From contig JACQVI010000079.1 in NCBI GenBank assembly GCA_016209795.1, positions 421-64,420 on the forward strand: a stretch of 64,000 bases of DNA. Reading direction: 5' to 3'. The notes beneath the pieces are model-generated. The model ran no database searches, was not told the DNA's origin, and worked only from the letters and a program-made list of their open reading frames with translations. A program made the translations under genes and the position numbers. This DNA is from Ignavibacteriota bacterium (lineage in GTDB: Bacteria > Bacteroidota > Ignavibacteria > UBA10030 > SZUA-254). Positions 26,909 to 54,395 of this stretch are shown here, piece by piece (the stretch's first letter is position 1; each line of letters opens with the position of its first letter).

Positions 26909-26917
26909 TTAATCGTC

Positions 26918-33630: not shown

Positions 33631-34215
33631 ATGAACAAATCTTTCATTTTCGTCTTGATGAGTGTTCTGGTAACACTCCTCAGTCTGTCTCAGGAGAAAG
33701 GAAAAGAGGCGAATGCCAAAATGCCCTCTGGTTTCCGGGGAGAATTTCTCTATCAGCTCGATGATGTTTCAAAGAAAATCGTCGATCTGGCAGAGGCGGT
33801 GCCGACAGAAAAGTATACATGGCGCCCAATGGAAGGCGTGCGTTCGATTAGTGAAGTCTACATGCATATTGCCGGTGCGAATTACTTGCTCCCCTCGTTT
33901 GTAGGCTTCAAACCTCCGGCAGGAATGAATCGTGACATGGAAAAAACGGTAACTGAAAAAGCGAACGTTGTCAAGTTTCTGAAGCAATCCTTCGAGTTCA
34001 TTCGAAAGGCAATTATGGAAACATCGGATAGTGATCTCGATAAACCTGCGAAGATATTCGGCCGTGAAACGACGATGAGAGGAGTATTCTTTGAAATTGC
34101 CAATCACATGCACGAGCATCTTGGGCAATCGATTGCGTATGCGAGGATGAACAAAATTGTTCCACCGTGGACTGCCGCCGAGCAAGCCCAGCAGAAGCAA
34201 AATTCTAAAAAGTAA
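33631..34215 (+). CDS. DinB/YfiT-like (DinB_2) metal-dependent hydrolase family protein with signal peptide
   Basis: Start chosen at the Met preceded by AAGGA. His-triad region YMHIAGANYL...HMHEHLGQ. Confidence 0.6.
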   Translation: MNKSFIFVLMSVLVTLLSLSQEKGKEANAKMPSGFRGEFLYQLDDVSKKIVDLAEAVPTEKYTWRPMEGVRSISEVYMHIAGANYLLPSFVGFKPPAGMNRDMEKTVTEKANVVKFLKQSFEFIRKAIMETSDSDLDKPAKIFGRETTMRGVFFEIANHMHEHLGQSIAYARMNKIVPPWTAAEQAQQKQNSKK

Positions 34216-34237
34216 TTTCTTTATGGATGCTTTTATG

Positions 34238-34441
34238 GCCCCACGATTCATCGTGGGGGAAAATAAAAACCCATCAACGAACAGGGCTTTAGCCCTTGAA
34301 TAGGGTTTGCGGATTAAGGATTCCCCAAAGTGAAGAGGCTGTGTGAAAACGCCTAACTCACCCTGAATCCCTCTCTTGAAAAGAGAGGGACTCGTCGAAT
34401 TTGCTGCAGATGTTCCCCTTCTCTTTTTAAGAGAAGGGGCG
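34238..34441. repeat. cluster of short GA/CT-rich palindromic hairpins in the intergenic region
   Basis: Four hairpins: ccccacga-ttca-tcgtgggg (34240-34259), agggc-ttt-agccct, ccctctct-tgaaa-agagaggg (34369-34390) and ccccttctc-tttttaa-gagaagggg (34415-34440). Confidence 0.35.
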
Positions 34442-34531
34442 CGGGGATGAGTTCCGACAATAATCACACAAGCTCTGAAGTTTGGGCTAGGAAAGAACAA
34501 TAAACAATTTGTCTCACGTCAGTTAGTAGAC

Positions 34532-35365: not shown

Positions 35366-35570
35366 GTTGACATTCATTCCACAAGCGAGTATATTTCTAA
35401 CAGTAAAGTAAGACCAATGAGAGCTGTGAATGGTCGGTTTGTATCTTGCCTCTATAAAAGAAATAAACGCAATAGCTCGTTAACACAATAGTTAGAAGGC
35501 GGCATTTTGCTCCAGCACAGAAGATTCGACACCAGATGATCAATCAATTACAAGCGTAAATCAAGCATTC

Positions 35571-37205
35571 ATGATGACACAGACATATATTCCGAGAGCG
35601 AACGGATGGAGGCAAACGTTACTGATATTTTGGTTTGTTTCTATCTTTCTTGAGTCCGAAGGAGCCCGTTCTCAGGACATCATCGTTGAAGAACACCCGA
35701 ATCATTACATACTTCTTGTAGATGCTTCCGGTTCAATGCTGTCCACAAAGGCGAAGGCTAATGCGCTTCGAAATATTTTGTTTGATACACTAAGCAATCG
35801 ACTTTTTCGTTTGGGTTTCGGCGAGAATATACCGCCTCTTGATCTCAATCGAGATTTCATCACCATGCATACTTTCGGAATCGTGGAGAAGGACTCTTCG
35901 CCAGCATATTTGCGACTCAAGGGTTATGATTTCCAGAAAGACTTTGTTCATACCATCATCTTGAGGGAGAGGTTAGTATCACCCCAGTACTTAACAGCAC
36001 GATTGTATCCGAATCGTTTTTTCGAATTGACAGTTCTTGGCTGGGCGAAGCAGTTAGGATTATCGGCATCCCGACCAGATTCACTAAATACGACCGCAAA
36101 CCGTACGTTCCTCATATTCATTCACGATGCAGAAACCAACGAAAGCTCTCTTGCTGAGGAGCTAATAATGGCCGAACGATGGTCCAACTCAGCAAGTTTT
36201 GAGCAAGCAAAGAGAATTGTCCGTGATATTGACCGCGACTACGGGTTTTATGATGCACAGGGGGAAAGACGGTGGGCTTGGCAACTGAGGTATCATTTGC
36301 CCAATCAACCAAGTCAAACCATATATCTCGAAGCGTACGAAGTTATTGCAGCTAATCTCCTGAAACTTCAAGGCGAGTCAAGATCAATACGTCCCTTCGC
36401 CGATATGAGGGTCAGATGGGTCAACGAGAAAAAAACGAATTCAGAAGGGATATTGAGCTACTCATTTGAAGAAACTTTTTTGACTTGGATTAACTCATTT
36501 CATCCGACCGAGATGACTGTTCACTTCAATTTCACGCGCAATACGACCTCATCTGTACAGCCATTTATCCCCTCAGCTGAGACTCCCTTTAAGTATTCTG
36601 ACACTCTCTCCTGTGATACGAGGGAGGTTAATATCGCATTCCAGGTTCCACTGCATCAATTGGACGCGTTGCTGGGAACGAGAAATATGCAGTTCGTCGT
36701 TGACCATTCACTCACGTTGCCTAAGCCTTTCCGATGCACGATAGAGTTCTTCCTGTTCACGTTGTCCACTGCCACAATTTCAATACTGCTGTTGACCACC
36801 ATAATTTATACAATCTACTTCAGATTCTTCGCAACCCATGTATTTCTTGAACTCCCTGGACTTGTGAAACCAATTCGAATTCGACGGAATACAGTCCTGA
36901 CCCAGGCAATCACCATTGCACCACAAACAAACTTAGAAGTCTTCTCCGTGCTCTTACCTCCCCAATTGATACAGAGACTTTTCTACCGACATGCTTCGTT
37001 ACTTATAAAGACCACCAATCAAGGTCTCTGCAAATGGCAAGATGAGGGAAGCGATTCAACAGTGATTAGACTACCACATAATAAGAAGCGAGTTAATGCT
37101 CTCTGGACTAATCTACCAAGCGGGCCAACAGTTGTTGCTTTGCTTTTTCGGCAGGCCCATTCTGAGTCACAACTCCACGTCGAATATCCAAAAGGAACTA
37201 ATTGA
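35571..37205 (+). CDS. membrane-anchored vWA-like domain protein
   Basis: N-terminal signal/anchor. MIDAS-like YILLVDASGSM (DxSxS). One strong TM helix (FFLFTLSTATISILLLTTIIYTIYF) before a ~130-aa C-terminal tail. Confidence 0.45.
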   Translation: MMTQTYIPRANGWRQTLLIFWFVSIFLESEGARSQDIIVEEHPNHYILLVDASGSMLSTKAKANALRNILFDTLSNRLFRLGFGENIPPLDLNRDFITMHTFGIVEKDSSPAYLRLKGYDFQKDFVHTIILRERLVSPQYLTARLYPNRFFELTVLGWAKQLGLSASRPDSLNTTANRTFLIFIHDAETNESSLAEELIMAERWSNSASFEQAKRIVRDIDRDYGFYDAQGERRWAWQLRYHLPNQPSQTIYLEAYEVIAANLLKLQGESRSIRPFADMRVRWVNEKKTNSEGILSYSFEETFLTWINSFHPTEMTVHFNFTRNTTSSVQPFIPSAETPFKYSDTLSCDTREVNIAFQVPLHQLDALLGTRNMQFVVDHSLTLPKPFRCTIEFFLFTLSTATISILLLTTIIYTIYFRFFATHVFLELPGLVKPIRIRRNTVLTQAITIAPQTNLEVFSVLLPPQLIQRLFYRHASLLIKTTNQGLCKWQDEGSDSTVIRLPHNKKRVNALWTNLPSGPTVVALLFRQAHSESQLHVEYPKGTN

Positions 37206-37220
37206 CATTAGAGGGATTAT

Positions 37221-39278
37221 ATGCAGGAAGCCAATTCAGACAAAACGGAAAAGCAAAGGACAAACGAAATCTCCTACTATGTAGCGCTCGATTTGGGGTC
37301 TGAGTCAATGTCTGCTTACTTTGAAGAGAAGGACTATTCTAAGTTCGATATGGTGGACTTGCAAGCACATGCAAAGACCTTGCTCGGACAAGATCCTGAA
37401 TACCTGATGGAAGAAGTTGAGAATCTTCAGAAGAAAAGTCCACGCCTGAGAACACGGATATTCATTCGCGACAGGAAACAGCCTTCAAGCCTATCGCTCA
37501 ATCATGCAAAATTAGATTTCATCCATAAGAACGGAACGAAACTCCCTGGTTACGATGAATCGCTCTTTGGTCTTTTCGCTGCACCGAACACATGGGTACT
37601 TGGAGGAATGATGCCCAATCCTAAAATCCCATTCCAATATGGTGCCCAAGAAATCATCCCGGAAGTGGAACCACAAGGCGGTGGAATAAAGGTGAAGCAT
37701 AACCCCGAGGTACTGATACAGCATCTCACTGCGCAGATTGTGCGTAATCTTGTGCTGTTGTCTCCCGAATTGCAAAACGTCGACCCTTCAAGCATTGAGC
37801 TTTTGCTGACAGTTCCGAATGTATATAGCTTACCTCATGTGGAAAGCCTCTGCTCATTCCTGCAAACGAACAGTGGCGTGAAAACCGTAAGGGCAGTAAG
37901 CGAGTCAGATGCTGCTGTGTACTTCGTGCTTGACCTTCCTCGAAATACCGATCTCACGGAGGTCAGCGAATTCAAAGGCAGAATCAGGAACAGGAAGGAC
38001 AAGGATTACTTGAGAATTGTTTCTATTGACATTGGACGTGGCACTACCGACTTGAGTGCTATTGAAGTGAAGCCACCACTCAACTCTCAAAGCCCACAAA
38101 ATCTGGTACGCTTGGCAGTCGTTGGCAAGAGTGATGGAGGAAATCGACTGAGTTACATTTTAGCTGAATACTTCAACAAACAGTTTATACATTTTCGACC
38201 AAGGATCGAATCGACCCTGGGAAAGAGTGTGCGATTCTCATTCCTTGAAAAGGAGCCGACCATTCCGACACCTTGGTCCGAGGCCATAGTAGCCTTAGAA
38301 ACCCTGATAGAAAGAATCAAGCGTTCTATCACAGAAAAACATTATGTGGGTTTGCAATCTGACCAGACAATTACAAACAGAATTCTCTCCAAGATCTGTC
38401 AACTAACTGATCCGAATTGGCAAGACAATAACGCTGACAAGTTCCAGGCACTTTTGGATGAGCTAACTGACCAAGGTTTTCTATCTCTGCCAGATTATTT
38501 ACCGCGGGGACTGCGCAGATGGTGGTGGCAAATTTTTTACAAGTCAAATAGGCTGAAACAGATACAATGTGACCTATCTATTGCAATTGAGAAATATGTG
38601 CAAGAAAATGTCTCAGAACTTCTTTCGCAATTAGTTCAAATGTACGCGGCTCGAGATGCTCGCTATACTTCCAAGGTTAGGTCTGCAGGCAAGGACCTCT
38701 TCGATCATAGGTGCACATTCGTAGTTATCTTGGGACAAGCAGCTCAGCTCGCTCCTATCCGATCGGCGATTCGCAGTAAGTTGTCTGAATTTGACTTCCC
38801 ATGGGAAACGAACATGCTTTGCTTGGACGGTCCGATTGCCAAGGAGGCTTGTTGTAAGGGTGCAGTTAGCTACGCCCGTTCGAAAGCAAAACTGACCAAT
38901 GATGACGAACTGATGGGTACATTTGGTATGCTTTCCCGTGTCACTCCGTTTGGGTCTGAGCAAAGTTTCAAAATGTTCAACATGTCAGAAATAAATAGCG
39001 CTAGATCAAGCAGTCAGGTAAGTTTCCCCGCTAAGTCCGAGGCCCTTCTATTCTATTCGTCACGTTTGTATACCAACGGTGAATCGCCAGGCCTGTTTGA
39101 TGGCTATACGGCGATCATCAAGACATTTGAAGGCAGCGAGTTTACATTCAGATATGACCGGCCAAATCGGAAGATTTATGTGAACGATATTCTCGTGGAT
39201 AAGCTTGCAACATACGGAGACATTCAAGAGTCAATCTACTATAAGGTCTGGCCGGAAGTGTTAAAACCGATGCAGTAG
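37221..39278 (+). CDS. Hsp70/actin-fold (ASKHA) ATPase, cytoplasmic, divergent
   Basis: Phosphate-1-like VALDLGSESMSAYF, connect-1-like VSESDAAVYFVLD and phosphate-2-like IVSIDIGRGTTDLSAIEV. No TM segments. Confidence 0.55.
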   Translation: MQEANSDKTEKQRTNEISYYVALDLGSESMSAYFEEKDYSKFDMVDLQAHAKTLLGQDPEYLMEEVENLQKKSPRLRTRIFIRDRKQPSSLSLNHAKLDFIHKNGTKLPGYDESLFGLFAAPNTWVLGGMMPNPKIPFQYGAQEIIPEVEPQGGGIKVKHNPEVLIQHLTAQIVRNLVLLSPELQNVDPSSIELLLTVPNVYSLPHVESLCSFLQTNSGVKTVRAVSESDAAVYFVLDLPRNTDLTEVSEFKGRIRNRKDKDYLRIVSIDIGRGTTDLSAIEVKPPLNSQSPQNLVRLAVVGKSDGGNRLSYILAEYFNKQFIHFRPRIESTLGKSVRFSFLEKEPTIPTPWSEAIVALETLIERIKRSITEKHYVGLQSDQTITNRILSKICQLTDPNWQDNNADKFQALLDELTDQGFLSLPDYLPRGLRRWWWQIFYKSNRLKQIQCDLSIAIEKYVQENVSELLSQLVQMYAARDARYTSKVRSAGKDLFDHRCTFVVILGQAAQLAPIRSAIRSKLSEFDFPWETNMLCLDGPIAKEACCKGAVSYARSKAKLTNDDELMGTFGMLSRVTPFGSEQSFKMFNMSEINSARSSSQVSFPAKSEALLFYSSRLYTNGESPGLFDGYTAIIKTFEGSEFTFRYDRPNRKIYVNDILVDKLATYGDIQESIYYKVWPEVLKPMQ

Positions 39279-39294: not shown

Positions 39295-41220
39295 ATGCAA
39301 ATCACCAAGCTGGTAGTATTAATTCTATTCTTGGCTATCGGGAACGTTTGTAGAGCGAGTCAAGACGAAGGCAGCCCCATCCTCTACAATTTTATGAGCG
39401 AGACCAATGTTTATCTCTGGGTCTCTCGAGCTGACCAACAACCAACAATCGCAACCATAAACAACGGGAAGTGGGACATCCCGAATACAGCACTGAATAA
39501 TCCTCGATGGAAGCAGCTGATTTCTTCGATTGTAAGCGGCGATTTTTCCTACCAAGATAAGTGGGCAAAATTCCTTGAGAAACTGCGCCTTGAGTATCCT
39601 GACACTACGTGGGCTAAACCGAGATTCCCGAACATTGAGATGTATGTTCGCATTCGTAGTAAGGATTCTGTTGCTGTTCAGATTCTGATGAGGCCTGACT
39701 TCTATGCCGAGTATGCTTTTGTCAAGAAGGAGACATGGGCAAAATCTGCAGATATCCCGACAGACAAAATATTGAACCTTCCGTACCGAGATCCGAATCT
39801 AACGAACATCTTCAACAAGGAAGCAACCGCACACAAGTGGGTGGATTCATGGCACAAATGGATAGAGTCCCGGATCGAGGAGCAAGACTCTATTCGTTCC
39901 ATAATGTATGCGGATAAAGATGGTAAATCCCTTTGGATCATCCAGGAACGGGTCACAGAAAGCAACTGGGTCTCCCGCTCAATGCGAAAGATGCCACCTA
40001 AACCAATTCTCATTGAAAAAACAGACGTTGTTGAAGTGAAGAAGACGGATGTTCTCATGTTACTTATTGTTGCTGCGTTTTCATTACTCTTAGGATTCGT
40101 TTCGCCGTGGCGCCTTTCTTTTATCCAACGTCTCATACCACTCCTATATCGAAGGAAGAAGCCCCAGATTCCAAACGTCGATGATGTCTCTTCGGGGCAT
40201 TTTGAGCAGCGTCTCACTGGGGTAAACAGGACTCGTCCAATTGTCGCAGAGAACAAGATTCAGAAGATCATATCCTCACAAGCTAACATAGAAAAGCTTT
40301 ACCAAATTTTCACAACGTATGAGAAACGCCAAGAGACCTTTTTGATTAATCTCCACGAGCAATTGGAGTCATTGTTCACCGAACTCCACACTAACACCTT
40401 GGAAGAATATGGTGTAGATGGACTTCAGTCTGATGAAGCTAAGCTGCTTCTAAGCTTAGGAACCTCCGCCAAAGAATGTCTTAGGAAATTGGATAGCTTT
40501 ATTGCCCAGGATCGTTTCCCAGCCAATCTGTTTTCGAATGATGCACATGCAACCTGGCTAAACGAGATTCCAGTGGTGTTGGTTTCGCTTAACGATCAAT
40601 TATCTAAAGCAAAACATCAATCCTCAGCGACCAGAGACAAGTTATTAGCGACTTCAGAAGAACTGAACCAAACGAAGAACCAGCTGCGAGAATTACAGGA
40701 TGTGAATAACCAGCTCGTTACTAAAGTCAGTAAGCTCGAACAGGAATATGGTAACATTCGCCGCCAACAGGAAGAATTGAATAGCCGCATGGAAGACCTA
40801 CACAAGGTAGAAAGCCTTGCTGTCTATTTAGAACAAGGCGAAGGGTATGTGCTCGCCCAGACGGATAACCCTGAGCAAGCTGCTATCGTCAGCTTTCTCT
40901 CCACGTACGCACTATTTCATCTTTGGGGGGCTACACTTAACAAACATTCAGAGAAAAGAGAAGTCATGCTTGCTAACATCTACTCTATTGCAGATAAGCT
41001 CAGATCATATCGTGGTTTTGATGTTGTTCTCAATGAGGTTGATACGACTGCACGAGCAGTGAATGAACTAGAGACATTACTGGGGAAGTCCCAAGAGAAA
41101 CATCATATTGCGCATCTGTTCCAAGTCTTACTGAGACGGCTAAGAGATATCAGTTCAGTTGACTTAGCTCCATATTACATAGGTCTTGATAAGTATGGGA
41201 AGTTATTCAAAGTAGCATGA
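39295..41220 (+). CDS. bitopic membrane protein with periplasmic N-domain and long cytoplasmic coiled-coil
   Basis: Signal peptide. Single TM (VLMLLIVAAFSLLLGFVSPW). Heptad-rich segment KAKHQSSATRDKLLATSEELNQTKNQLRELQDVNNQLVTKVSKLEQEYGNIRRQQEELNSRMEDL. Confidence 0.45.
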   Translation: MQITKLVVLILFLAIGNVCRASQDEGSPILYNFMSETNVYLWVSRADQQPTIATINNGKWDIPNTALNNPRWKQLISSIVSGDFSYQDKWAKFLEKLRLEYPDTTWAKPRFPNIEMYVRIRSKDSVAVQILMRPDFYAEYAFVKKETWAKSADIPTDKILNLPYRDPNLTNIFNKEATAHKWVDSWHKWIESRIEEQDSIRSIMYADKDGKSLWIIQERVTESNWVSRSMRKMPPKPILIEKTDVVEVKKTDVLMLLIVAAFSLLLGFVSPWRLSFIQRLIPLLYRRKKPQIPNVDDVSSGHFEQRLTGVNRTRPIVAENKIQKIISSQANIEKLYQIFTTYEKRQETFLINLHEQLESLFTELHTNTLEEYGVDGLQSDEAKLLLSLGTSAKECLRKLDSFIAQDRFPANLFSNDAHATWLNEIPVVLVSLNDQLSKAKHQSSATRDKLLATSEELNQTKNQLRELQDVNNQLVTKVSKLEQEYGNIRRQQEELNSRMEDLHKVESLAVYLEQGEGYVLAQTDNPEQAAIVSFLSTYALFHLWGATLNKHSEKREVMLANIYSIADKLRSYRGFDVVLNEVDTTARAVNELETLLGKSQEKHHIAHLFQVLLRRLRDISSVDLAPYYIGLDKYGKLFKVA

Positions 41221-41252: not shown

Positions 41253-44200
41253 ATGGAATTCTTCATCATACCTCAGCTTACTTTGACTTTTGCGTTAGCT
41301 CTTCTGATATCGAGAAGTAGCCAAGAGACATTAGTCGGAGTATCAAAGTACTTCTTCATAGCATATTCTTGGTTCACGTGCGGATTACTCGTTTGGATGA
41401 TAACTTATTTCATTGGATTGGGCGACAACGGGACACCAAGGTTGTCGCTGGAGGAGCAACGACGAATTGTACACTTGGGTTACTATGTAGATCCGGATAG
41501 TTCAATTACTTTCAGTGGAGAGGGTTTTGAGAATTCCTTTCCTCACCAAGTCCTAAGTAACAACGATCGGATAAGACTAACACCTCTCTTTGGCCCTAGT
41601 ACTCTCAGAGCGACGAAATGGTTGGTTGAACATGAGATTCGCAGCCAACCCTTGAGACTCGATGATTCATGCGTAAACATCTCTCAACAAATGTGGCTGG
41701 CTCCAGGAGATACCTTCTCTGCTTATATCTACAGGGAGAGCGGCCCGCTTTTTTTCCGTCTCAGATGGGTAGTTGACACAACGTGGTGGGGTAGAGTCCA
41801 AAACAAATACTATTATACACAAGGTGTCTTCAGAAATGGGCTGGCAAATTACGAAATACGTGATACGGTGTTTTCAAAAAGCGCGCTGAGAGAAGGCCGC
41901 AAGCTGAGCGTAATGATGAGTTTGTGGGCTCAAAGAGAAAAAGAAGTATCTCAGCGTATTAACTCAACTTTATGGAATATCTTTCGAGGCATTACTTTCG
42001 TACGCGAGAAAAGAAATGACATTCTATCCAGGATAGGCCTGCTCATTGCTGATTCTTTGCTAGAAGAGTCCAATATTACGTTATACAAGAACTCTTCACG
42101 CCTTACCCGAGAAAGTGCCAACAGGGTAATAGAAATTCCTTTTTCTACCCATGTCGAGTGTGGGCTTGGGGCAAGCGATAAGCTCTCCCTTGTTCTTACA
42201 GATACGTTATCAAACGATAGCTACTTGGGCAATGTCCTCGAAGTCCGGTTTGAAAAACCCTATCGCTGGCCGCTGCCTCCAAAGCCTGACCAATATTTTA
42301 TCACAACCACCACCGATGATTTCATCCCTAGAGATGGCTATCGGATAAGCCTCGGACAATCAACAAATCCACTGTACGCGAAGTGTGTTCTGAATCGGGC
42401 AAGAGACACCATCGAAATAACTGATGGCAGGAGTGTCAGAGCTTTTCCATTGGGCGGTGTTATTAGGCTAGGGGACTTCCAACGTGGAGCAATCCTCTCT
42501 CTAGGGTCTGTAAACACTTTCGCAACTCTCCCATTGATTAGTAGCCAGCTGTACAATATTGGAGTTACAGCAACCTTGTTTCTTTTGATTTTGACTCTAT
42601 TAGTTACTTGGCTTCATTTTACAGAGAAGTACTCCCGTCCGAGGCTCGATGTTGGTTGGGTCGTGGTTTGGGGAGTAATGCTCACGATACTTACAGTGCG
42701 CCTTGTCTTATCGTATCGGGCAAGCTTATTGGCTCCAGAAGATGCGACACCGCGTGAGGTATTGGAAGTCTTTAGAAAGAGCCTCGATCTGAGCCTACTT
42801 GGCCTGCTCTTGATCCCATTATTGTTCATAGTCACACGTTGGTGTTGCCGAGATCACATAGAAGGTTTGTTTAGCAAAACCATTGCCGTTCTCAGGAAAC
42901 ATAAAACCATTGTATTACTGACATCGGCCATTGGGGCAGTTGCAATCTTCTCATGGCACATCCATTTCCAAAAACTCATTCAGGAAGCCTCTGAAGTCGA
43001 ATGGTTTCATTGGATCATGATTGGGGTATTACTTTTCGTCTGCAGTCTAGTTTGGATTCTGATGCGCAAGTGGAGAATCTACCTTGGGTGGGCCGCTGTT
43101 ATCCTTGCGTGGGTCCTTGTCGCCCATTTTTTTGGTATTGGTGAATCATTCTTCGGCCGCGTGAATATCGCAACGCACGTCTTCATGATAGTAGCCCTTC
43201 TCTCAGTGTCCAAACGAATCGTCGCTAATGCCAGCGTTATCGATTATACCATGGGCTTTTTGATTATCGTCGTTGGAATAGTGGCGGTCGTGGTTATCAT
43301 AGGTGATCGGGGGTTCATAATCTATACTCCGTCTTTGGTAACATTCCCGTTGTTGTGTCTTTTCTGGAATCGCCAATCAATCAACAACATCGTCTCTGAC
43401 GGACGTATCTACATCAGTTCACGATTACCTTTGGTTTTAGCTGGAATCATCAGTTTCGTTCTGCTCGTGGCGCTTCTCTCACAACTCGAGTGGAGGAGCC
43501 AAGTAATAAATCCTCGTAATCTTGAATCGCTCCATTACCGTTTAGCGAGCTTCACTGACACAGAAGAGTCTATTCTTCTCGCTCGTGAGGAAGATAGAAA
43601 CTTCAATCTGGATATGCTGCTCAGAAACTCGCATCAAGATTGGCAGATGAAGTTGTATGCGTCCGAAGGTGCTGATAGCGCGAGAGGATACGGAAAAGCG
43701 CCTCCGTCTGACATAGGAATGACTTATGCGACCTCATCTTCAGATTGCGTTTTCTCAACTTACTTGCTTGCAGAACACGGCTCCTTTGCGGCGCTGTCAG
43801 TTGTATTGTTGTATTTAACCCTAGCTATTGTTGTTTGCTTTGCTGCCTTGCATTTTCCAATCGACTACCAGCATCGTCTACTAACGTTGATCGCAATTGC
43901 ATCTTTCTTCGTGGCTAATTGTTTGTACATGGCAAGTACCAATGTTGGCTTGGCTCCCTTCACGGGTCAAAACATACCGTTACTTTCACTTCACTCTGGA
44001 TCAGATCTTGTGCAAGGATGTTTGCTTTTGCTTCTTCTCTCAGTTCTTCTATCCAAAGGGGTACATACGAGCACAGGTGTTGCACTTCCGGGGAACCCCA
44101 TCGTACGCAAGGTCGTTTTCTTTGTGATCATCCTGATCATTTTCTGGTTTGTGGCTCTCACCTTCTCTATCATTAATGTTGCTGCTAAAGACGATTATAG

Positions 44201-46466
44201 AAAAGACCATGACTTCCGCAGCACCTACCCCGGCCTTAAAGAATCTCTGCCTGACATTGATAACCCGGAGCGTGCCACACGCTGGAAATTGGTCGGTGAG
44301 AATTTGTTGCGACGCGCGGGCAGCTTCGCCATTCCGGGAATCGATGCTCTCATTGCGCAATTTAACGAAAAAGCCAACAAGTACGATGCTAACAATAACC
44401 TGATTTATCTCGCAGTCCACCCGACGAAAGGAGATACGGTCGTCGCAGTCAACCGAAATTATTTTAGACTTCGTTCTCCGTTCAGAATCGATTCGATCTG
44501 GACCGGAATAATCCTTTCGAGGTCGGATCCTGCCGCACCTACTATCAGTGGATTGGGGGGATCGTTCAGAATCAGTCTCCGCGATAGAGGACATGCTGAG
44601 AAGATTTCTTTGGGCGAGTCACCACCATTAATTACGACAAGGGCAGTGCAGATCACTGATCCAGGACGTAACGATGCATTCTTTGAGTTGATCCGCAGAG
44701 GTGAGGAGCTATTCCTTGAACGAAAAATAGGAGACTGGGAGATTTCGGTTAACGGGTCTAGGGTGACCTCACCGGTGAGGTTAAATCCATTCGATATTAT
44801 TTCCTTGGCAAGAAAGCAAAGACCATCCCACCAAGTACAATCTCGTTATAGGCTGACCACATTTTACTACTTAGGAATACAACATCCCATCTTCGCTTTT
44901 ACACAATGGAGAAATGGCAGGACCCGTCGGCTGTTTCCAGAAGGCGAAGTGTTCCCGCTCTCGTACGCTTTGGCGAAAAGCATGGACGAACTCCCACACC
45001 GACCTGATACCTTGGCTATTTCGCTCAACTTGTCACTACACACTTCTCTACAAAATGAGATAGCTGCGTTTGCAAGCAGATATCCACAGTACTCAGATAA
45101 TGAACCTCTCTCCACTCGCAAGCTCGCAGTGACATTAATCGATGCTTTTTCAGGCAAATTGCTTGCCATTCCATCGTGGCCCTTCATTAGTCCAAACCAA
45201 TTCGATTTTGAGGAAAAACTAGTACGGGCAACACCTACTGAGCAAATGCGGCTGGTCAACAATCATAATTTCACGAATCATCCCATTGGTTCAACTATCA
45301 AACCGCTCGTGTTGGCTTCATTAGCAACGATGTTGTGGCCAGAGGTTGACGTGTCGAGGATCTCTGTTTCAAATATTGCGGATAATACCACAGGTCACGA
45401 AACTGGAAACCGTGAGTACCGACATCCTCATGTGCGAGTTGGAAGTCATGAGCTAGAAGCGATTTGGGATTGCAATAGTGAACAGTCCTCGATCAACGCC
45501 CATGATTTTATCATCCATTCGAGAGACTATTACATAGGCATGATAGGGGTCCTCGGAATGCTCACGGATAGGAGTGACTGGACCAGAGTACTCAACCAGG
45601 AAGGAACAGGAAACAGGATAATATATGGTAACAGAACATACTCAATCAATATGTACAACGCCCGCATGTCGCCCTTTGTTTGGGACGGTACTCGAATTAC
45701 TGGTCTCCGTACTCAATCGAGCATGGACAGTACCTTCCTTTTTAAGGGGCTTTCTTCCGCCTTCGGGGCAGGTCTCTCAACCAGTTACAAATTAATGTTG
45801 AATCGATCTGTTGCTGACTTCTTCCCTTCCTTGCATAGGATGAATCTGCCCGTCATTGATAGCTTAGAGTCAATGTATCTAGATAACGTCGTTCCCGAGC
45901 CAGTATTACTTCACTTTGGAGAAACTTCCCAACTTCTGCGTCGCGATTTGATTACTTTCTTACTCGGGGCAGGCCAGTGCCGATGGAACAACGTAATCAT
46001 GGCCCAATCTGCTGCCCGTGTTGCGACTGGTAGAGCAGTAACTGCAACCTTGGAGTTAGATAATGTGGAAGAAAATCCGCGCGCGTTTCCTCTCTTACAC
46101 CCACCAATGGATAATAGACAATGGCGCTATGACAACCTGATCACACCTATGAGGCTTGTTGGAGTGCGAGGTACAGCTGATTCATTGAGGAATCTAGTTC
46201 AATCACCATTCGTTGCCATTTACAAAACTGGCACAATTGAAGAGAGGGAACGTGGACCGGAAAGCGAGTGGCTTCTTTTTGTAGTCGGTAGATTACAGAA
46301 TGACAGTTTCGTTCCTGGTGAAACAGTAGCGGGCTTCTTCTATATGCAGGAGTCAAAAGACCGATACGGGCCTATGAAGAAGTTCGAACTTGCACGCCCG
46401 ATTATCACTCGTGTCGTTGATTATCTTAAGCGCGTTTCAACAGTGTCACAACATTACGATGAATGA
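41253..46466 (+). CDS. giant (1737 aa) SEDS (FtsW/RodA/SpoVE-like) glycosyltransferase fused to a class B penicillin-binding protein transpeptidase, with a ~420-aa N-terminal extracytoplasmic extension and extra TM helices
   Basis: SEDS blocks: SSSDCVFSTYLLAEHGSFAALSVVLLYL (compare SDFIFsvigEELGfiG; D831 at nt 43743) and GLAPFTGQNIPLLSLHSGSDL (compare GllPvTGvPLPFiSYGGSS). Transpeptidase motifs: SxxK = STIKP (S1347, nt 45291), SxN = SIN and KTG = KTGT (K1658, nt 46224). Confidence 0.7.
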   Translation: MEFFIIPQLTLTFALALLISRSSQETLVGVSKYFFIAYSWFTCGLLVWMITYFIGLGDNGTPRLSLEEQRRIVHLGYYVDPDSSITFSGEGFENSFPHQVLSNNDRIRLTPLFGPSTLRATKWLVEHEIRSQPLRLDDSCVNISQQMWLAPGDTFSAYIYRESGPLFFRLRWVVDTTWWGRVQNKYYYTQGVFRNGLANYEIRDTVFSKSALREGRKLSVMMSLWAQREKEVSQRINSTLWNIFRGITFVREKRNDILSRIGLLIADSLLEESNITLYKNSSRLTRESANRVIEIPFSTHVECGLGASDKLSLVLTDTLSNDSYLGNVLEVRFEKPYRWPLPPKPDQYFITTTTDDFIPRDGYRISLGQSTNPLYAKCVLNRARDTIEITDGRSVRAFPLGGVIRLGDFQRGAILSLGSVNTFATLPLISSQLYNIGVTATLFLLILTLLVTWLHFTEKYSRPRLDVGWVVVWGVMLTILTVRLVLSYRASLLAPEDATPREVLEVFRKSLDLSLLGLLLIPLLFIVTRWCCRDHIEGLFSKTIAVLRKHKTIVLLTSAIGAVAIFSWHIHFQKLIQEASEVEWFHWIMIGVLLFVCSLVWILMRKWRIYLGWAAVILAWVLVAHFFGIGESFFGRVNIATHVFMIVALLSVSKRIVANASVIDYTMGFLIIVVGIVAVVVIIGDRGFIIYTPSLVTFPLLCLFWNRQSINNIVSDGRIYISSRLPLVLAGIISFVLLVALLSQLEWRSQVINPRNLESLHYRLASFTDTEESILLAREEDRNFNLDMLLRNSHQDWQMKLYASEGADSARGYGKAPPSDIGMTYATSSSDCVFSTYLLAEHGSFAALSVVLLYLTLAIVVCFAALHFPIDYQHRLLTLIAIASFFVANCLYMASTNVGLAPFTGQNIPLLSLHSGSDLVQGCLLLLLLSVLLSKGVHTSTGVALPGNPIVRKVVFFVIILIIFWFVALTFSIINVAAKDDYRKDHDFRSTYPGLKESLPDIDNPERATRWKLVGENLLRRAGSFAIPGIDALIAQFNEKANKYDANNNLIYLAVHPTKGDTVVAVNRNYFRLRSPFRIDSIWTGIILSRSDPAAPTISGLGGSFRISLRDRGHAEKISLGESPPLITTRAVQITDPGRNDAFFELIRRGEELFLERKIGDWEISVNGSRVTSPVRLNPFDIISLARKQRPSHQVQSRYRLTTFYYLGIQHPIFAFTQWRNGRTRRLFPEGEVFPLSYALAKSMDELPHRPDTLAISLNLSLHTSLQNEIAAFASRYPQYSDNEPLSTRKLAVTLIDAFSGKLLAIPSWPFISPNQFDFEEKLVRATPTEQMRLVNNHNFTNHPIGSTIKPLVLASLATMLWPEVDVSRISVSNIADNTTGHETGNREYRHPHVRVGSHELEAIWDCNSEQSSINAHDFIIHSRDYYIGMIGVLGMLTDRSDWTRVLNQEGTGNRIIYGNRTYSINMYNARMSPFVWDGTRITGLRTQSSMDSTFLFKGLSSAFGAGLSTSYKLMLNRSVADFFPSLHRMNLPVIDSLESMYLDNVVPEPVLLHFGETSQLLRRDLITFLLGAGQCRWNNVIMAQSAARVATGRAVTATLELDNVEENPRAFPLLHPPMDNRQWRYDNLITPMRLVGVRGTADSLRNLVQSPFVAIYKTGTIEERERGPESEWLLFVVGRLQNDSFVPGETVAGFFYMQESKDRYGPMKKFELARPIITRVVDYLKRVSTVSQHYDE

Positions 46467-48017
46467 ACTACTAAGCAAAACGCCGCCTAACAACAGCAAA
46501 AAACGATTCGGGCAAAAAGCGCCCTCACCCAAATTGCGGCACTCTCGCAATCTTCCCACTCCCCACAGAATCAAACTAACCGCCAATCCCGGATACATCG
46601 GCTCAATCCCAAGGGGATAATTTCCTGTTGCTCCATTCACATGTCCAGCAATAAGCCACCCCAGAGATGTTAGCCAGCCGAGCAGCATCGAGAGAAATGC
46701 ATAGCGTGCCGAGATTTTCAATCGCTCAAAGTAACTTGCCATTAACGGCACAAGCAAGCCTGGAATCACAACCGTCCCAATCGTGTACCAGAGTTTGATG
46801 ACGCTGGGGATGGCAAGTCCGAGAAGAGCAGAAAATACGAAAGAGACAATCAAACCGAGTTGCGTATACTTTGTTAAAGACTGGTTTGAGTTTGCAGGTT
46901 CGAGATGTGAGTAACCCTCTCCCCTCTTGTTCCCCTCTCCCAAATTTGGGAGAGGGGATGCAGGGGTGAGGGTATTACTCAATCCTCTAACCTCTAACCG
47001 CATCGCTACATCTCTTCCCAACGTTTGTGCTGAGACAAATGCTAAAGTGTTCAACGTCGACATAATCGTTGCGAGCATGCCGACGTAAAACAATCCTTTG
47101 GCAACGGGTGGAAGAATGGTTTCCGCAAGCATTGGGTATGCTGCGATTGGATTCTGAAGATTTGGAAGTGCGGCACGAGCATACAGTCCTGCCGTTGCTG
47201 TCATACAATCAAAGATGAACCAGAAGATAATTGAAACGAGAATCCCCTTTTGCGCCGTCGTGCCGTCCTTTGCTGCGTAGCACCGTTGATGAAATGCAGG
47301 ATCGACTAACGTCCAGAGTGCTATGAAAAACCAGACAAGGATGTACTGGATGGAATGCCCGCCATGCCATGCCAAGTGCAGCGGTGGGAGGCTCGATTGC
47401 AGATACTCAAATCCTCCGTAACTCGTAATGCAAAAAGGAATAATGATAAGAAAGCCAAGGAACATCAGGATGAATTCAAGAACATCAGTCTGGACATCGG
47501 AACGAAATCCACCAAAATACAAGTAGGGAAGTATTACAATCGCAGTTACTATGACGCTCAGGAGCATACTCCATCCAAAAAGCATTTGGAGAAAAACGCT
47601 GAGCATCAGAATATATGGTGCCGGCGTCATCAGAATGAACGTGAGAACTGAGCCAAGCAGTGCTGTTTTGTTGTCGTAGGCGTGTGCGAGTTTATCCGGG
47701 ATCGAGTACAGGTTTGTTGCTCGGATTTTCTTTGCAAGGAAGAATGCGAAGACTGCAGCGAAAACATAATAAGGCAGCCCCTGCACAACCCAATTTGAGA
47801 TACCATGCCGGTATGAAAACTCTCCCACACCTAAAATACCGCCATACCATGTTGAGACCAGCGTCATCACAAACACAGGAAGCGTCAGCGAGCGTCCCGC
47901 TAAGAGATAATCTTCTTCGGACCTGGTGGTTTTCCTTGCTGATCGAAAGCCGATATAGAGAACTGCCGCAAAGTAAAAGAGAATAATGAAGATGTCGATG
48001 AAGGAGAGATTAATCAT
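46446..48017 (-). CDS. sodium:solute symporter (SSS family) transporter, probable vitamin (thiamine-related) uptake
   Basis: 523 aa with about 13 TM helices and SSS-type N-terminal helices. It is the last gene of the riboswitch-TonB-receptor-TPK operon. It contains an in-frame palindromic insertion (see repeat feature). Confidence 0.75.
   Translation of the reverse strand: MINLSFIDIFIILFYFAAVLYIGFRSARKTTRSEEDYLLAGRSLTLPVFVMTLVSTWYGGILGVGEFSYRHGISNWVVQGLPYYVFAAVFAFFLAKKIRATNLYSIPDKLAHAYDNKTALLGSVLTFILMTPAPYILMLSVFLQMLFGWSMLLSVIVTAIVILPYLYFGGFRSDVQTDVLEFILMFLGFLIIIPFCITSYGGFEYLQSSLPPLHLAWHGGHSIQYILVWFFIALWTLVDPAFHQRCYAAKDGTTAQKGILVSIIFWFIFDCMTATAGLYARAALPNLQNPIAAYPMLAETILPPVAKGLFYVGMLATIMSTLNTLAFVSAQTLGRDVAMRLEVRGLSNTLTPASPLPNLGEGNKRGEGYSHLEPANSNQSLTKYTQLGLIVSFVFSALLGLAIPSVIKLWYTIGTVVIPGLLVPLMASYFERLKISARYAFLSMLLGWLTSLGWLIAGHVNGATGNYPLGIEPMYPGLAVSLILWGVGRLRECRNLGEGAFCPNRFLLLLGGVLLSSSFIVML
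46915..46990. repeat. nested GA/CT-rich palindromic element inserted in-frame in the SSS transporter CDS
   Basis: Perfect 10-bp stem cccctctccc-aaattt-gggagagggg, flanked by an outer imperfect stem gagtaaccctc...gagggtattactc. It translates to the loop insertion NLGEGNKRGEGYSHLEP. Confidence 0.4.
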
Positions 48018-51737: not shown

Positions 51738-52842
51738 GATCTTCTTGAAGAGGTTTTGACTGAAGCTTAAGCTGTAATTCTTGAATACGTTGGTCGTATT
51801 CATCTGCGTTGTGAGGTTGTTGGTGTTTCAATAGTTGGTACGTTAATATTGCCTCGTTGTATGCACCCTGCATAGCGTAAATTTCAGCAAGTGTTTTACT
51901 AACGATCCTGCTATCGTCACTCAAATCCACAGATTGATCATAGTGGGGTTGAGGTTCTTGGGGTGGTGTAGTACTCGTCTCACTTACTGAACCGATCACA
52001 GGTTCATCCAGAGAGAGATTTTCTACGTTCTCACCTGGTGTTTCCAATGAATGTTGTGATATTTCCTGTACCGGCGCAGAAACTGTCGTAACATCAACGG
52101 GACTTGCCAATTCAGGCTCGGTAGGAGCGATGGTTTCAGAACTTGCATGCAGTATTTCTGAAGAATCTTGTTCTAACTCCTGCACTGACGCAACGGATGT
52201 CTCGAGTTCAGTTGTGTCCACGATCTCAGGTTCTGTCGGATAAGCTATCGCAAAATCCTCGGCAGTCTTCTCAGATGAATCCTGCGCAATCTCTTCTATT
52301 GTCGAAGGAGTAATCTCTGCTTCGATACCTTCTTGGTCGGTGTCCGCAGCGATTTTAGGTTCGGTTAAAGAAATTGTCTCTAAGCCCTCAACAGACTCTT
52401 CAGGTGCATCTTGTGTTATTTCCTGCTCAGTCGAAGGAATCGTCTTTGCCTCAAACGTTTTATGTTCAGTCTCCTCAATAACTTCATGCAATGTCTCAAC
52501 ATCTTCAAAGGGATCGGTTGGTGAGGATTCATTTCTGCGGAGTTGTTGTAGCGCAAAGTTCTCCCAGTCTGCGCGTAGTGCTTTAAGTGTTTGGGCGTCA
52601 GGATTATAATGAAGTGTTTGATGAAGATGTAATAGCGCTGAAATGTAATCCTTTTCTGCTTGAAAGCATCGTGCGAGTATCAGGTGTGCTGTCGGATATG
52701 ATGGATGTTCTTCCAAGCCAGCACGACATAGTTCTTTTGCTTGATCGATTCTGCCTAAACTAAGATATTCGCTAGCAAGTCGTACAGATAAAGGAGATCG
52801 TGGGAAAGAGGAAAGTTTAGATTCAAGCTGAACTAAATCCAT
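51730..52842 (-). CDS. TPR-domain protein with acidic tandem-repeat linker
   Basis: N-terminal and C-terminal TPR-like helices. The central ~180 aa is E/T/P/S-rich with ~33-aa tandem repeats (..PSTEQEITQDAPEES.., ..PSTIEEIAQDSSEKT.., ..SVQELEQDSSEIL.., ..APVQEISQHSLETP..). Confidence 0.55.
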   Translation of the reverse strand: MDLVQLESKLSSFPRSPLSVRLASEYLSLGRIDQAKELCRAGLEEHPSYPTAHLILARCFQAEKDYISALLHLHQTLHYNPDAQTLKALRADWENFALQQLRRNESSPTDPFEDVETLHEVIEETEHKTFEAKTIPSTEQEITQDAPEESVEGLETISLTEPKIAADTDQEGIEAEITPSTIEEIAQDSSEKTAEDFAIAYPTEPEIVDTTELETSVASVQELEQDSSEILHASSETIAPTEPELASPVDVTTVSAPVQEISQHSLETPGENVENLSLDEPVIGSVSETSTTPPQEPQPHYDQSVDLSDDSRIVSKTLAEIYAMQGAYNEAILTYQLLKHQQPHNADEYDQRIQELQLKLQSKPLQEDQK

Positions 52843-54395
52843 TAGGGAACCTCAATCAATGACTGATGCTCTAGTTTCTTTTGGAATGAAACATGAAGTG
52901 GTTGTTTTCTTGATGAAATACTCCTTCGCGTGAGTGCTACCTTTCTGGCGAGCCAGGCATGTTTAACCGAAAGCCATCCTACTAATCCAAAGCCCATCGA
53001 GAAAAGAAGCTGGAATGGGACAGCTGCGAGTTCCACGTAATAGAGTGAAGCTGCGACTCCAAAGAGACAGTAAATTGCCAGAACTACCTCGATGATGACG
53101 GTGTAGTTCACTTTGATCATTGCGTACTTCTTATCGAGCCAGTTATCTTTTCTACTGATAACGGAGTACTTGGGTGTGCGCACGAACTCAGATTTTTTCT
53201 TGATTAACCCCTCAACGACTGCTCTTGTGTTATTAACCGCTAATCCCATACTCCCTGCCAAGAACAATGGAAACAGTAACATCCGTTTCTGCCAGTCAGG
53301 ATAAACATCTTTCTGTGAATAGAGATAAAAGAGAAATGACCCGATGAAAGCAAAAACAAATCCCGCCATGATCGTAAAGTACGATTCATAGCCACCCTGA
53401 TGTTTGATGAAGATCAGTGGTACATTTAAAATACCCGCTATCAAGATAAAGGGAAAAACAATATTGCCAGAAAGGTGGAAGGTCGCATTGATCTTTTTCT
53501 CCAATGGAAGATCGGACTTCCACACCTTTGGAAGAATTTTACGCGCAGTTTCAATAGCGCCTTTTGTCCATCGGAATTGTTGAGACTTGAGAGCGTTTAT
53601 TTCTGAGGGTAGCTCTGCCGGTGAGGTGACATCGTTTAAGAATTTAAACTTCCACCCACGTAATTGCGCCCTGTAGCTTAAGTCTAAATCCTCTGTGAGT
53701 GTATCAGATTCCCAGTTGCCCGCATCAATGATGCATGCCTTCCTCCAGATACCACCTGTGCCATTAAAGTTGATGAAAAAGCCAGCTTTGTTCCGAACAC
53801 TTTGTTCGATAACGAAGTGCCCATCTAATGCCATTGCCTGAACCCGTGTTAAGAATGAATAATCACTGTTCAAATGTTCCCAACGAGTTTGAATGAGGCC
53901 TATTTTTTCATCGAGGAAGAAATACGGCAGCGTCTGATAGAGGAACTCGCGTTTTGGGATGAAATCTGCATCGAACATAGCAATGAACTCGCCGTGAGCT
54001 GTCATTAAGCCTTCTCTGAGAGCACCGGCTTTAAAACCCTGACGTGATCCTCTTCGAATATGTTCAATATCAAAACCTTGCTCACGGTAGTGTGCGACCC
54101 GTTCAGCGATAATCTCGGTTGTTTCATCAGTGGAATCATCCAAAACCTGGATTCCCAACTTGTCTATGGGATAGTCAATCTGACATGCAGCATCAATCAG
54201 TCGTCCAACGACGTAGTACTCATTGTAAACAGGCAATTGGATTGTCACGAGAGGAAATTGTGTAAGCTCCCCAGCTTTCTCGATTTTCTTATCACGATGC
54301 TTCATGTAATAATAAATCATGATGAAGCCACTTGATCCAAAGAAGAAAAGAATTGTTAACGAAGTGAAATATGTGCCGATGATGAGATCTTGCAT
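52842..54395 (-). CDS. processive family-2 glycosyltransferase (cellulose/chitin/PNAG-synthase-like)
   Basis: D,D,D,QxxRW signature: VLDDSTDE, FDADFIP, TEDLDLSYR and QQFRWTKG. N- and C-terminal TM helices. Confidence 0.75.
   Translation of the reverse strand: MQDLIIGTYFTSLTILFFFGSSGFIMIYYYMKHRDKKIEKAGELTQFPLVTIQLPVYNEYYVVGRLIDAACQIDYPIDKLGIQVLDDSTDETTEIIAERVAHYREQGFDIEHIRRGSRQGFKAGALREGLMTAHGEFIAMFDADFIPKREFLYQTLPYFFLDEKIGLIQTRWEHLNSDYSFLTRVQAMALDGHFVIEQSVRNKAGFFINFNGTGGIWRKACIIDAGNWESDTLTEDLDLSYRAQLRGWKFKFLNDVTSPAELPSEINALKSQQFRWTKGAIETARKILPKVWKSDLPLEKKINATFHLSGNIVFPFILIAGILNVPLIFIKHQGGYESYFTIMAGFVFAFIGSFLFYLYSQKDVYPDWQKRMLLFPLFLAGSMGLAVNNTRAVVEGLIKKKSEFVRTPKYSVISRKDNWLDKKYAMIKVNYTVIIEVVLAIYCLFGVAASLYYVELAAVPFQLLFSMGFGLVGWLSVKHAWLARKVALTRRSISSRKQPLHVSFQKKLEHQSLIEVP

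Follow-up and report, generated by a model that had tools for sequence, protein, structure and literature searches.

The window analysed here is a 64,000-nt stretch of DNA from an Ignavibacteriota bacterium, in which four adjacent and co-oriented genes, designated A to D, are separated by gaps of 15, 16 and 32 nt. All of the features described below lie on the + strand. Gene A (35571..37205) encodes a bitopic protein of 544 aa with a signal-like N-terminus, a transmembrane (TM) helix at aa ~390-421 and a cytoplasmic tail of ~125 aa. The product of gene B (37221..39278; 685 aa) is predicted, from its motifs, Pfam HSP70 matches and hhalign comparisons, to be a cytoplasmic Hsp70/YegD-like ASKHA ATPase. 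Gene C (39295..41220) encodes a second bitopic protein of 641 aa, in which a signal-like N-terminus and a periplasmic part of ~230 aa are followed by a TM helix at aa 253-271 and a cytoplasmic coiled coil of ~370 aa. The last gene, D (41253..46466), encodes a giant protein of 1737 aa.

The reading frame of gene D opens with the ATG at 41253 and runs uninterrupted to the stop codon ending at 46466, which bears out the single 1737-aa polypeptide described in the first-pass annotation of this DNA. The public annotation, P0001, is 1689 aa long and starts 48 aa downstream of this ATG. The longer frame is preferred, because the two TM helices predicted by hydropathy at its N-terminus (aa 5-20 and 33-55, within aa 1-55; 41253..41417) are present in the homologues as well.

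The number of those homologues depends strongly on the method of searching. A word-indexed homologue search returned only four members and understated the size of the family, whereas many more relatives emerged from the exhaustive search and from a scan of GTDB. At E<=1e-10 the family comprises 241 clusters (50% identity), with ~100 of the best 150 being full length, and its median length is 1763 aa. Such numbers bear directly on the reality of the gene. The source is a MAG, and at one locus (L008) the homologue of gene D is split into three ORFs, so that frameshifted or chimeric joining of SEDS, PBP and unrelated genes could be suspected. However, more than 100 full-length collinear homologues occur in independent assemblies and sources, and every junction is spanned by conservation. 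Because at least 100 of these independent, collinear proteins reach full length (1560-2017 aa), a frameshift or an assembly join is excluded, and an artefactual origin of gene D deserves practically no credence.

The penicillin-binding part of gene D

The C-terminal part of gene D is, as classified from its sequence, a class B PBP (bPBP). The penicillin-binding transpeptidase domain, delimited by the PDB profile, hhalign and motif conservation, covers aa 1291-1737 (45123..46463). In a search of the PDB with a profile of 13 family sequences, PBP2 of T. thermophilus was matched at 8e-6 (6pl5_B), together with ~35 class B PBPs at E<0.1. The hhalign comparison with E. coli FtsI gave a probability of 97% (P=1.2e-10), with the SxxK and SxN motifs of both proteins in register (S307 and S359-S-N of FtsI). 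Matches to the Pfam transpeptidase model PF00905 were obtained for 4 of 13 members (best 8.5e-4), the gene D protein itself being unmatched.

The three motifs of the transpeptidase are S1347-T-I-K1350 (45291-45302), S1423-R-D1425 (45519-45527) and K1658-T-G-T1661 (46224-46235). Their order and spacing are those of bPBPs, and SxxK, S-x-N/D/T and KTGT are conserved at 98-100% in the 109 members over which all conservation counts for gene D were taken. Within the second motif, S1423 is found in 109/109 sequences, while the third position is occupied by N (64), D (29) or T (16). The STIK and KTGT motifs, like the SEDS residue D831 discussed below, are located where the first-pass annotation had placed them and are conserved family-wide. 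The 'SIN' that it proposed as the second motif (aa 1412-1414) falls in a gappy, unconserved stretch and has to be replaced by S1423-R-D1425.

The transpeptidase domain is preceded by a periplasmic linker (aa 975-1290; 44175..45122), which had been described as ~350 aa of extra sequence. This description holds for the first ~240 aa, which are beta-rich and family-specific, and for which aa 975-1215 found no match in the PDB. It does not hold for the last ~75 aa, which can be aligned with the final part of the bPBP pedestal (FtsI 194-237): the hhalign alignment to FtsI starts at aa ~1214, and the alignments to bPBPs of the PDB begin near the same point. The pedestal model itself, PF03717 (PBP dimerisation), was never matched in Pfam scans of the gene D family.

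AlphaFold2, run with 4-sequence alignments, returned a mean pLDDT of 44.5 for aa 1-985 and 42.6 for aa 940-1737. Because of this low pLDDT, the models are unusable as evidence on the SEDS fold or the SEDS-PBP interface. In a Foldseek search the top 50 matches are all PBP2 or PBP3, with E-values down to 7e-8 over ~500-600 columns, at a query pLDDT of 42.6 and TM-scores of 0.2-0.3.

The membrane part and its SEDS-like core

Hydropathy and the positive-inside rule predict 16 TM helices in gene D, in agreement with the more than 15 noted earlier. Besides the two N-terminal helices, ten are located within aa 436-743 and the others at aa 848-866, 876-894, 919-937 and 956-974. Three parts are predicted to be periplasmic: a domain of 380 aa, a loop of 104 aa (aa 744-847) and the C-terminal 763 aa. 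The first of these corresponds to the N-terminal extracytoplasmic domain of the first-pass annotation and covers aa 56-435 (41418..42557); it is beta-rich and family-specific, and no known match was found for it. The 16th helix (aa 956-974; 44118..44174), assigned from hydropathy and loop charges, is predicted to run from inside to outside at the position expected of a bPBP membrane anchor. Two internal relationships were considered and rejected on hhalign scores, namely a kinship between the N-domain and the linker (P=0.083) and a duplication within the membrane block, as in the two-GTase protein of Pedobacter (aa 430-610 against aa 605-945, P=0.28).

The TM part of gene D is SEDS-like, and the clearest resemblance lies in aa 790-942 (43620..44078), which comprise the end of loop 4 and the counterparts of SEDS helices 8-10, as judged from PF01098, the PDB profile and hhalign. 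This stretch carries the motif N897..F-T-G-Q-N-x-P-L-L-S and matches PF01098 (FTSW_RODA_SPOVE) at E=3.2e-5, with 23.5 bits against a gathering cutoff of 26.4; of the 356 profile positions it covers only 250-348, which form the C-terminal third. Matches to this model were obtained for 18 of 45 family members (best 1.8e-13); each of the other families was matched by one member at most. In the PDB, the family profile found FtsW (1.1e-4) and RodA (3e-4) as its sole matches, while a TM profile of four sequences found nothing. The hhalign comparison with SEDS proteins gave P=4e-4; the homologue search from E. coli RodA and FtsW had returned only near-identical enterobacterial SEDS proteins, and the reference profile is therefore shallow.

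Scanned alone, aa 790-942 stay slightly under the cutoff of PF01098, and the match is missed in scans of the TM region and of the full-length protein, the latter having no Pfam match at all. The gene D family sits below the Pfam cutoffs and is an undescribed family.

The residues of the SEDS active site are retained to a large extent. The large periplasmic loop (aa 744-847; 43482..43793), the counterpart of SEDS extracellular loop 4, contains W797, D831 and E841-H-G843. By phmmer, hmmsearch and hhalign, D831 (codon 43743-43745) aligns to the Asp of HTDFVF in FtsW and RodA, the catalytic loop 4 residue (HTDFIF) known as D255 in T. thermophilus RodA and D262 in E. coli RodA. This position is Asp in 106 and Glu in 3 of the 109 members, and E841, belonging to the SEDS E-x-G motif, is present in 109/109. 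A second acidic site is D685-x-G687, with D685 in 109/109 and G687 in 107/109 sequences. In FtsW homologues its HMMER counterpart is 'aqPDLGT', in an alignment that is weak when taken alone (10.8 bits); the site corresponds to the SEDS 'PDLG' loop between helices 5 and 6, with D159 in E. coli RodA. Both Asp residues and the PBP part are predicted to lie on the same, periplasmic side of the membrane. The TM4 motif 'QPSE..K' is lost: gene D R636 'RINIATH' aligns to SEDS 'RIQPAEF', and over the 109 members the stretch R636-I-N-I-A-T-H has no conserved acidic residue or Lys in place of the Glu-Lys pair.

The ten helices of aa 436-743 (42558..43481) are assigned, by hydropathy and a weak collinear HMMER alignment to FtsW homologues, to a diverged N-terminal SEDS core with inserted helices. 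The 'additional helices' recognised earlier at aa ~420-780 are therefore real only in part. Inserted helices exist, and the pair at aa 552-603 is missing in some homologues, but by the collinear motifs most of this region represents the SEDS core's own N-terminal helices. The broader proposal of a SEDS-class B PBP fusion with ~700 aa of extra sequence is upheld by significant profile matches to both families and by catalytic residues that are near-invariant in the 109 members. On such sequence grounds, the balance leans towards gene D being a single-chain, highly diverged peptidoglycan synthase and the characteristic subunit of a conserved module of four genes.

A different substrate has to be weighed against this assignment. 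SEDS, Wzy and WaaL proteins are thought to be distant relatives, and the SEDS-like part might polymerise or ligate another undecaprenyl-linked glycan, with the PBP-like domain serving as a hydrolase or using an acyl substrate other than peptidoglycan. The loss of the QPSE motif, the strong divergence of the N-terminal half of the core, one member with a weak match to Wzy_C (0.0088) and the large novel periplasmic domains, which could bind another polymer, all fit such a function. However, the best-kept motifs are SEDS-specific ('TDxxF..E.G' and 'P.TGq.lPllS'), and the PDB yields SEDS chains only. The partner domain, including the junction from pedestal to transpeptidase, is specifically class B PBP-like, and the coupling of SEDS and bPBP is the known logic of peptidoglycan synthesis. 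Another glycan as the substrate is rather unlikely, and peptidoglycan is the favoured one.

Partner genes and known wall-synthesis systems

Across at least three phyla, 14 loci hold both gene B and gene D; gene A was recovered in 10 and gene C in 9 of them. The module is seen in MAGs of Acidobacteriota, Armatimonadota and the Ignavibacteria type, the chromosome OY969418.1 being one carrier, and in the loci of Armatimonadota the slot of gene C is filled by unrelated genes. In one locus (L006), genes A and B are fused as one ORF.

The gene B proteins contain the invariant motifs D24-L-G, E228-S-D230, D270-x-G-x-G-T-x-D277 and G505-Q, and topology prediction finds no TM helix in gene B. Pfam HSP70 matches 4 of 13 members (best 2.4e-5), and DnaK is matched in the PDB at E~0.01. 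The hhalign P values rise from YegD (3.6e-6) and DnaK (6.7e-6) to MreB (1.6e-4) and FtsA (7.8e-3). This greater proximity to Hsp70/YegD than to MreB/FtsA weakens the analogy with the elongasome. Gene B shares its ASKHA nucleotide-binding motifs with E. coli YegD, an Hsp70-family protein of unknown role. It differs from YegD in the greater length of its family (685-850 aa), in its insertions and conserved beta-rich C-terminal part, and in being genomically tied to a putative wall-synthase gene and once fused to a membrane protein with a MIDAS motif.

The latter protein, gene A, has a periplasmic domain with an invariant, MIDAS-like D51-x-S53-x-S55; T179 and D186 are invariant as well in the nine aligned members. 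It has no match in Pfam, and its comparison with MreC gave P=0.84. Its similarity to the vWA proteins ViaA and YfbK of E. coli is limited to the beta1-MIDAS strand, with 15-19 aligned columns (P=0.004). Gene C yields only coiled-coil type matches in Pfam and NCBIfam. A role of the module in anti-phage defence was considered and rejected, as a PADLOC scan of the four genes gave nothing for A, B and D; gene C had only coiled-coil level matches to LmuB and PbeC (E 2e-4 to 1e-3).

A cytoplasmic ATPase with two adaptors has a regulatory appearance, and gene D could accordingly be imagined as a sensor. In such an arrangement, muropeptides or beta-lactams would be the ligands of the PBP-like domain, in the manner of BlaR1/MecR1, and the signal would pass by way of the membrane block to the module of the Hsp70-like ATPase. 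PBP-fold sensors on polytopic membrane parts are indeed known (BlaR1; PMC12516126). Against a sensor, the conservation of D685 and E841 (both invariant) and of D831 (97%) speaks for a retained glycosyltransferase site in the SEDS-like part. The domain scans revealed neither a protease nor a kinase as an output domain, and the best matches are biosynthetic bPBPs rather than proteins of the BlaR type. A sensor is an improbable alternative to the putative synthase.

The closest described counterparts of gene D are the natural SEDS-bPBP chimeras, or 'bifunctional class B synthases', such as the 947-aa protein of Rhodococcus jostii (GTase-pedestal-TPase) and the 1341-aa protein of Pedobacter ginsengisoli (PMC12516126). 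Gene D resembles them in placing a SEDS-type membrane glycosyltransferase, a TM helix, a pedestal region and a transpeptidase in one polypeptide, with the catalytic Asp and the SxxK/SxN/KTG motifs retained. In contrast to the published set, which was gathered by InterPro domain architecture, measures ~950 aa and adjoins mreB, rlmH or Ser/Thr kinase genes (PMC12516126), the gene D family is about twice as long (median 1763 against ~950 aa) and resides in its own four-gene module. The difference in length comes with an N-domain of ~380 aa, two leading TM helices, inserted helices and a novel linker of ~240 aa. The position of the family below the Pfam domain cutoffs may be a reason why such a domain-based survey would miss it.

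RodA-PBP2 and FtsW-FtsI (PDB 6PL5, 8TJ3, 8BH1 and 8P1U) are the best and only relatives of both halves of gene D in the structural database, and the active sites are predicted to face the same side of the membrane. Gene D might accordingly be one of these housekeeping pairs, merely fused, and an orthologue of a known machine. The top PDB matches (PBP2, FtsI, FtsW and RodA) and the order of glycosyltransferase, TM helix, pedestal end and transpeptidase, identical to that of the natural chimeras (PMC12516126), are compatible with this possibility. Unlike the housekeeping pairs, however, gene D is covalently fused, lacks a conserved QPSE in TM4 and has a mostly unrecognisable pedestal, and its divergence is so extreme that the full-length protein escapes Pfam. 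The family is distributed patchily over phyla and occurs in MAGs only. The neighbourhood of gene D is not of the dcw or mre type: genes of the thioredoxin-like and symporter kinds flank it, and the window ORFs examined included no mreB/C/D, ftsL/Q or mur gene. In place of MreBCD/RodZ or FtsA/QLB/N, gene D has an ATPase of the Hsp70-like type and a pair of bitopic proteins as its conserved partners; they are unrelated to MreC, MreD and RodZ, and genes A-C match no Mre or Fts family in Pfam. There is little chance that gene D is such a housekeeping pair.

The proposed wall-synthesis machine

SEDS-bPBP pairs are central to wall growth and division in bacteria and are prime antibiotic targets. To our knowledge, two regulatory settings have been described for such pairs, the elongasome guided by MreB and the divisome guided by FtsZ/FtsA. 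The gene D family represents a sizeable group of fused synthases, as they are read here, with their own unrelated set of partners.

In the proposed mechanism, the SEDS-type core would act as a lipid II glycosyltransferase, with the catalytic-type residues D685 and D831 facing the periplasm. The TM helix after this core would lead to the pedestal remnant and to a D,D-transpeptidase with S1347 as its nucleophile, and the polymerisation of glycan and the cross-linking of peptides would thus be coupled within one gene D polypeptide. The two beta-rich periplasmic parts (aa 56-435 and ~975-1215) and the extra TM helices would represent additions to this core. On the cytoplasmic side, the ATPase encoded by gene B may engage the tails of the bitopic proteins A and C, the periplasmic domains of which may contact or regulate the synthase. 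If these proteins do form a physical complex, genes A-D would encode a self-contained accessory wall-synthesis machine, apart from the housekeeping elongasome and divisome.

A further step can be proposed only tentatively. Genes A-D could constitute a third kind of SEDS-bPBP wall machine, in which control of the synthase is exerted from the cytoplasm by an Hsp70-like ATPase instead of a homologue of actin or tubulin, by way of two bitopic adaptors and the novel periplasmic domains of the synthase itself. The task of such a third machine might be a specialised process of the envelope in Acidobacteriota, Armatimonadota and Ignavibacteria. If gene D is active, it would provide a natural single-chain model for coupled glycan polymerisation and cross-linking. 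An active enzyme would also put to the test which SEDS motifs are indispensable, since QPSE has been lost while both Asp residues are kept, and it might reveal a new mode of control over wall synthesis in phyla of soil and sediment that have been little studied. As regards the expression of the module, promoter-like sites are in total not above the shuffled expectation, and a TTGACA-17-TATATT sequence (11/12) at 35367..35395, 176 nt upstream of gene A, is given purely as a lead to what may be the operon promoter.

A single open reading frame and a sizeable family

The giant gene (gene D) runs uninterrupted from the ATG at 41253 to a stop codon ending at 46466 (+), which bears out the single 1737-aa polypeptide proposed in the first-pass annotation. 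The base composition across the frame shows nothing unusual. Of the rival readings, an artefact alone is firmly excluded. Hydropathy and loop charges predict 16 TM helices, in keeping with the earlier count of more than 15, and place the N-domain (aa 56-435, 380 aa), a loop (aa 744-847, 104 aa) and the last 763 aa in the periplasm. By this predicted topology, the active sites of both halves lie on the same side of the membrane. In the public annotation (P0001, 1689 aa, from a MAG labelled Ignavibacteriae), this protein begins 48 aa downstream of the ATG at 41253. That start is probably too late, because the two TM helices of the extra stretch (window 41253-41396) are likewise found N-terminal to that Met in the homologues. 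At its own 3′ end, the giant gene shares 21 nt (46446-46466) with the 3′ end of a convergent sodium:solute symporter gene (46446..48017, -).

A word-indexed homologue search returned four members only. At E<=1e-3, the exhaustive profile search with aa 1-1090 gave 572 cluster representatives, of which 241 score <=1e-10 and 79 <=1e-30; the best 150 of the 572 were inspected, and the lower-scoring matches may include ordinary SEDS proteins. Roughly 100 of these 150 have lengths of 1560-2017 aa. The 109 aligned members share one architecture throughout; the median length is 1763 aa for the whole protein, and 377, 103 and 777 aa for the N-domain, loop 4 and the PBP part, respectively. In GTDB species genomes, a pattern scan found 12 loci, all in MAGs, from Acidobacteriota (including Pyrinomonadaceae and Ca. 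Angelobacter), Ca. Aminicenantes, Armatimonadota/Fimbriimonadales and one unclassified bacterium. The sources checked name the family proteins nothing beyond 'hypothetical protein'. At one Acidobacteriota MAG locus (L008, 9899-15173), three consecutive ORFs of 260, 1026 and 476 aa stand in place of an intact giant gene, reflecting either a pseudogene or assembly indel errors.

The two enzyme-related halves and the added domains

The earlier proposal of a diverged SEDS core and a PBP transpeptidase in one chain holds at the sequence level, as both homologies are recovered by profile methods. For the SEDS half, single-sequence phmmer gives a weak FtsW match (E=0.036, aa 829-931), aligning SSDCVF with HTDFVF and NVGLAPFTGQNIPLLS with NVGLLPTKGLTLPFLS. 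The SEDS Pfam model PF01098 is missed when the full-length protein or the whole TM region is scanned; aa 790-942 alone match its positions 250-348 of 356 at E=3.2e-5 (23.5 bits, just below the 26.4-bit cutoff). In the scan of this stretch, PF01098 is matched by 18 of 45 family members, at best 1.8e-13, and no other Pfam family by more than one. Up to E=10, the 45-sequence profile of the stretch retrieves FtsW and RodA alone from the PDB, six sequences in total (best 1.1e-4 and 3e-4). Some more distant relatives score higher on the full model, e.g., P0092 at 6.1e-6, while P0148 reaches 1.5e-4, under the cutoff, together with an above-cutoff match to the PBP transpeptidase model PF00905. A local HMM built from close enterobacterial RodA/FtsW homologues matches the member P0041 at 6.9e-6. 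Upstream of aa 790-942, weak but collinear HMMER alignments pair the family 'LRINIxxH' with SEDS 'LRIQPAEF', and 'kDaGfliy' with 'qPDLGTvvv'; D685 of the latter family motif is invariant (109/109). On account of the profile matches, the collinear alignments and this invariance, we read the SEDS core as complete, with its first two thirds very diverged. The SEDS TM4 Glu/Lys motif is lost in the family, and a rival reading takes the SEDS-like part for a polymerase of another glycan. The AlphaFold model of aa 1-985 (mean pLDDT 44.5) is too poor for a check of the SEDS fold.

For the transpeptidase half, Pfam gives no match to the full-length protein, whose sole NCBIfam match is a weak one to PBP2 (1.6e-4). 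A 13-sequence family profile finds Thermus thermophilus PBP2 in the PDB (6pl5_B, 8e-6) and about 35 class B PBPs at E<0.1, aligned from the pedestal end through the SxxK motif. The hhalign comparison of Escherichia coli FtsI with the 109-sequence profile (97% probability, P=1.2e-10) pairs S1347-T-I-K with S307-T-V-K and S1423-R-D with S359-S-N. The STIK and KTGT motifs were rightly described as preserved: S1347, K1350, S1423, K1658 and G1660 are 100% conserved in the 109 full-length members, and T1659 and T1661 98-99%. The 'SIN' at 1412-1414, also listed as a PBP motif, does not stand, as this stretch is gappy and unconserved and S1423-R-D takes its place in the alignment. The top 50 Foldseek hits of the low-confidence C-terminal model are exclusively PBP2/PBP3 chains; with TM-scores of 0.2-0.3, this ranking is at most supportive. 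A BlaR-like sensor is a further rival reading of the protein.

The N-domain (56-435) and aa 975-1215 of the linker have no PDB match by profile and no Pfam match. In the AF2 model, aa ~100-320 are mostly strands (pLDDT 60-83). The helix pair 552-603 is an insertion, since it is missing from some homologues. Neither an internal duplication of the membrane block nor a kinship of the N-domain with the linker left any sign in hhalign.

Partner genes and relation to known SEDS-bPBP systems

The giant gene closes a row of four genes that share its orientation, with gaps of 15, 16 and 32 nt between them and a promoter-like site upstream of the first, gene A. Gene B encodes an Hsp70/YegD-like ATPase with all nucleotide-binding motifs invariant and is found together with the giant gene in 14 loci. 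The bitopic product of gene A (10 loci) carries a MIDAS-like DxSxS motif that is invariant, a motif-level lead only to a possible vWA domain; gene C (9 loci) encodes a bitopic coiled-coil protein. In an Acidobacteriota chromosome (L006, OY969418.1, 3650-7471), genes A and B form a single 1273-aa ORF, a hint that both proteins work jointly. The third partner is lineage-specific, because unrelated conserved genes (424+194 aa or 576 aa) occupy the gene C position in the Armatimonadota loci L014-L017 (about 5750-7650). No further conserved genes surround the module among the loci compared, and PADLOC gives no defence-system match.

The sequences show that the giant protein is homologous to both enzyme families and that its catalytic residues are conserved, as is the operon; genes A and B are fused in one locus. 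The giant protein is predicted to polymerise lipid II and then cross-link the product in cis, and ATPase B may act on this putative synthase via the parts of A and C that lie in the cytoplasm, their tails. The suggested analogy with the elongasome or divisome is functional only: in hhalign, Hsp70 is a closer match to gene B than MreB or FtsA, and genes A and C gave no relation to MreC/MreD/RodZ or FtsQLB in any test run. Alternatively, the protein could be the housekeeping SEDS/bPBP pair in fused form. A 2025 survey, retrieving by InterPro domain architecture, listed 117 proteins combining SEDS and bPBP domains, most of ~950 aa, including a Pedobacter chimera of 1341 aa with two GTase domains; their neighbours are mreB, rlmH or Ser/Thr kinase and phosphatase genes (PMC12516126). 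In contrast to these chimeras, the giant family scores under the Pfam cutoffs and reaches almost double their length; its added domains and partner genes are its own. A full-text literature search found no description of the family, although its coverage was incomplete and such absence is no proof of novelty.

Several neighbouring features were also noted. In Ca. Aminicenantes (L009, 15083-18142), a second Hsp70-like ATPase of 1019 aa with a ~335-aa N-terminal extension immediately follows the giant gene. In a metagenomic locus (L002, 15581-17602), a lytic transglycosylase gene (SLT + LysM) lies convergent with the giant gene, the end of which it overlaps; such a peptidoglycan-related neighbour was seen at this locus only. 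The window flanks carry ordinary chromosomal genes (ppk, an Omp85-family gene, lepA, polysaccharide genes, an SSF symporter). Envelope/polysaccharide genes at 18168-28808 and 52842-54395, outside the conserved module, encode a TMEM260-like O-mannosyltransferase-type protein, a Polysacc_synt flippase-type protein, a polysaccharide deacetylase and family 2 glycosyltransferases. A 243-aa ORF with a TTG start (33769-34500, -) overlaps a 209-aa ORF (33586-34215, +) and is probably a spurious shadow ORF.
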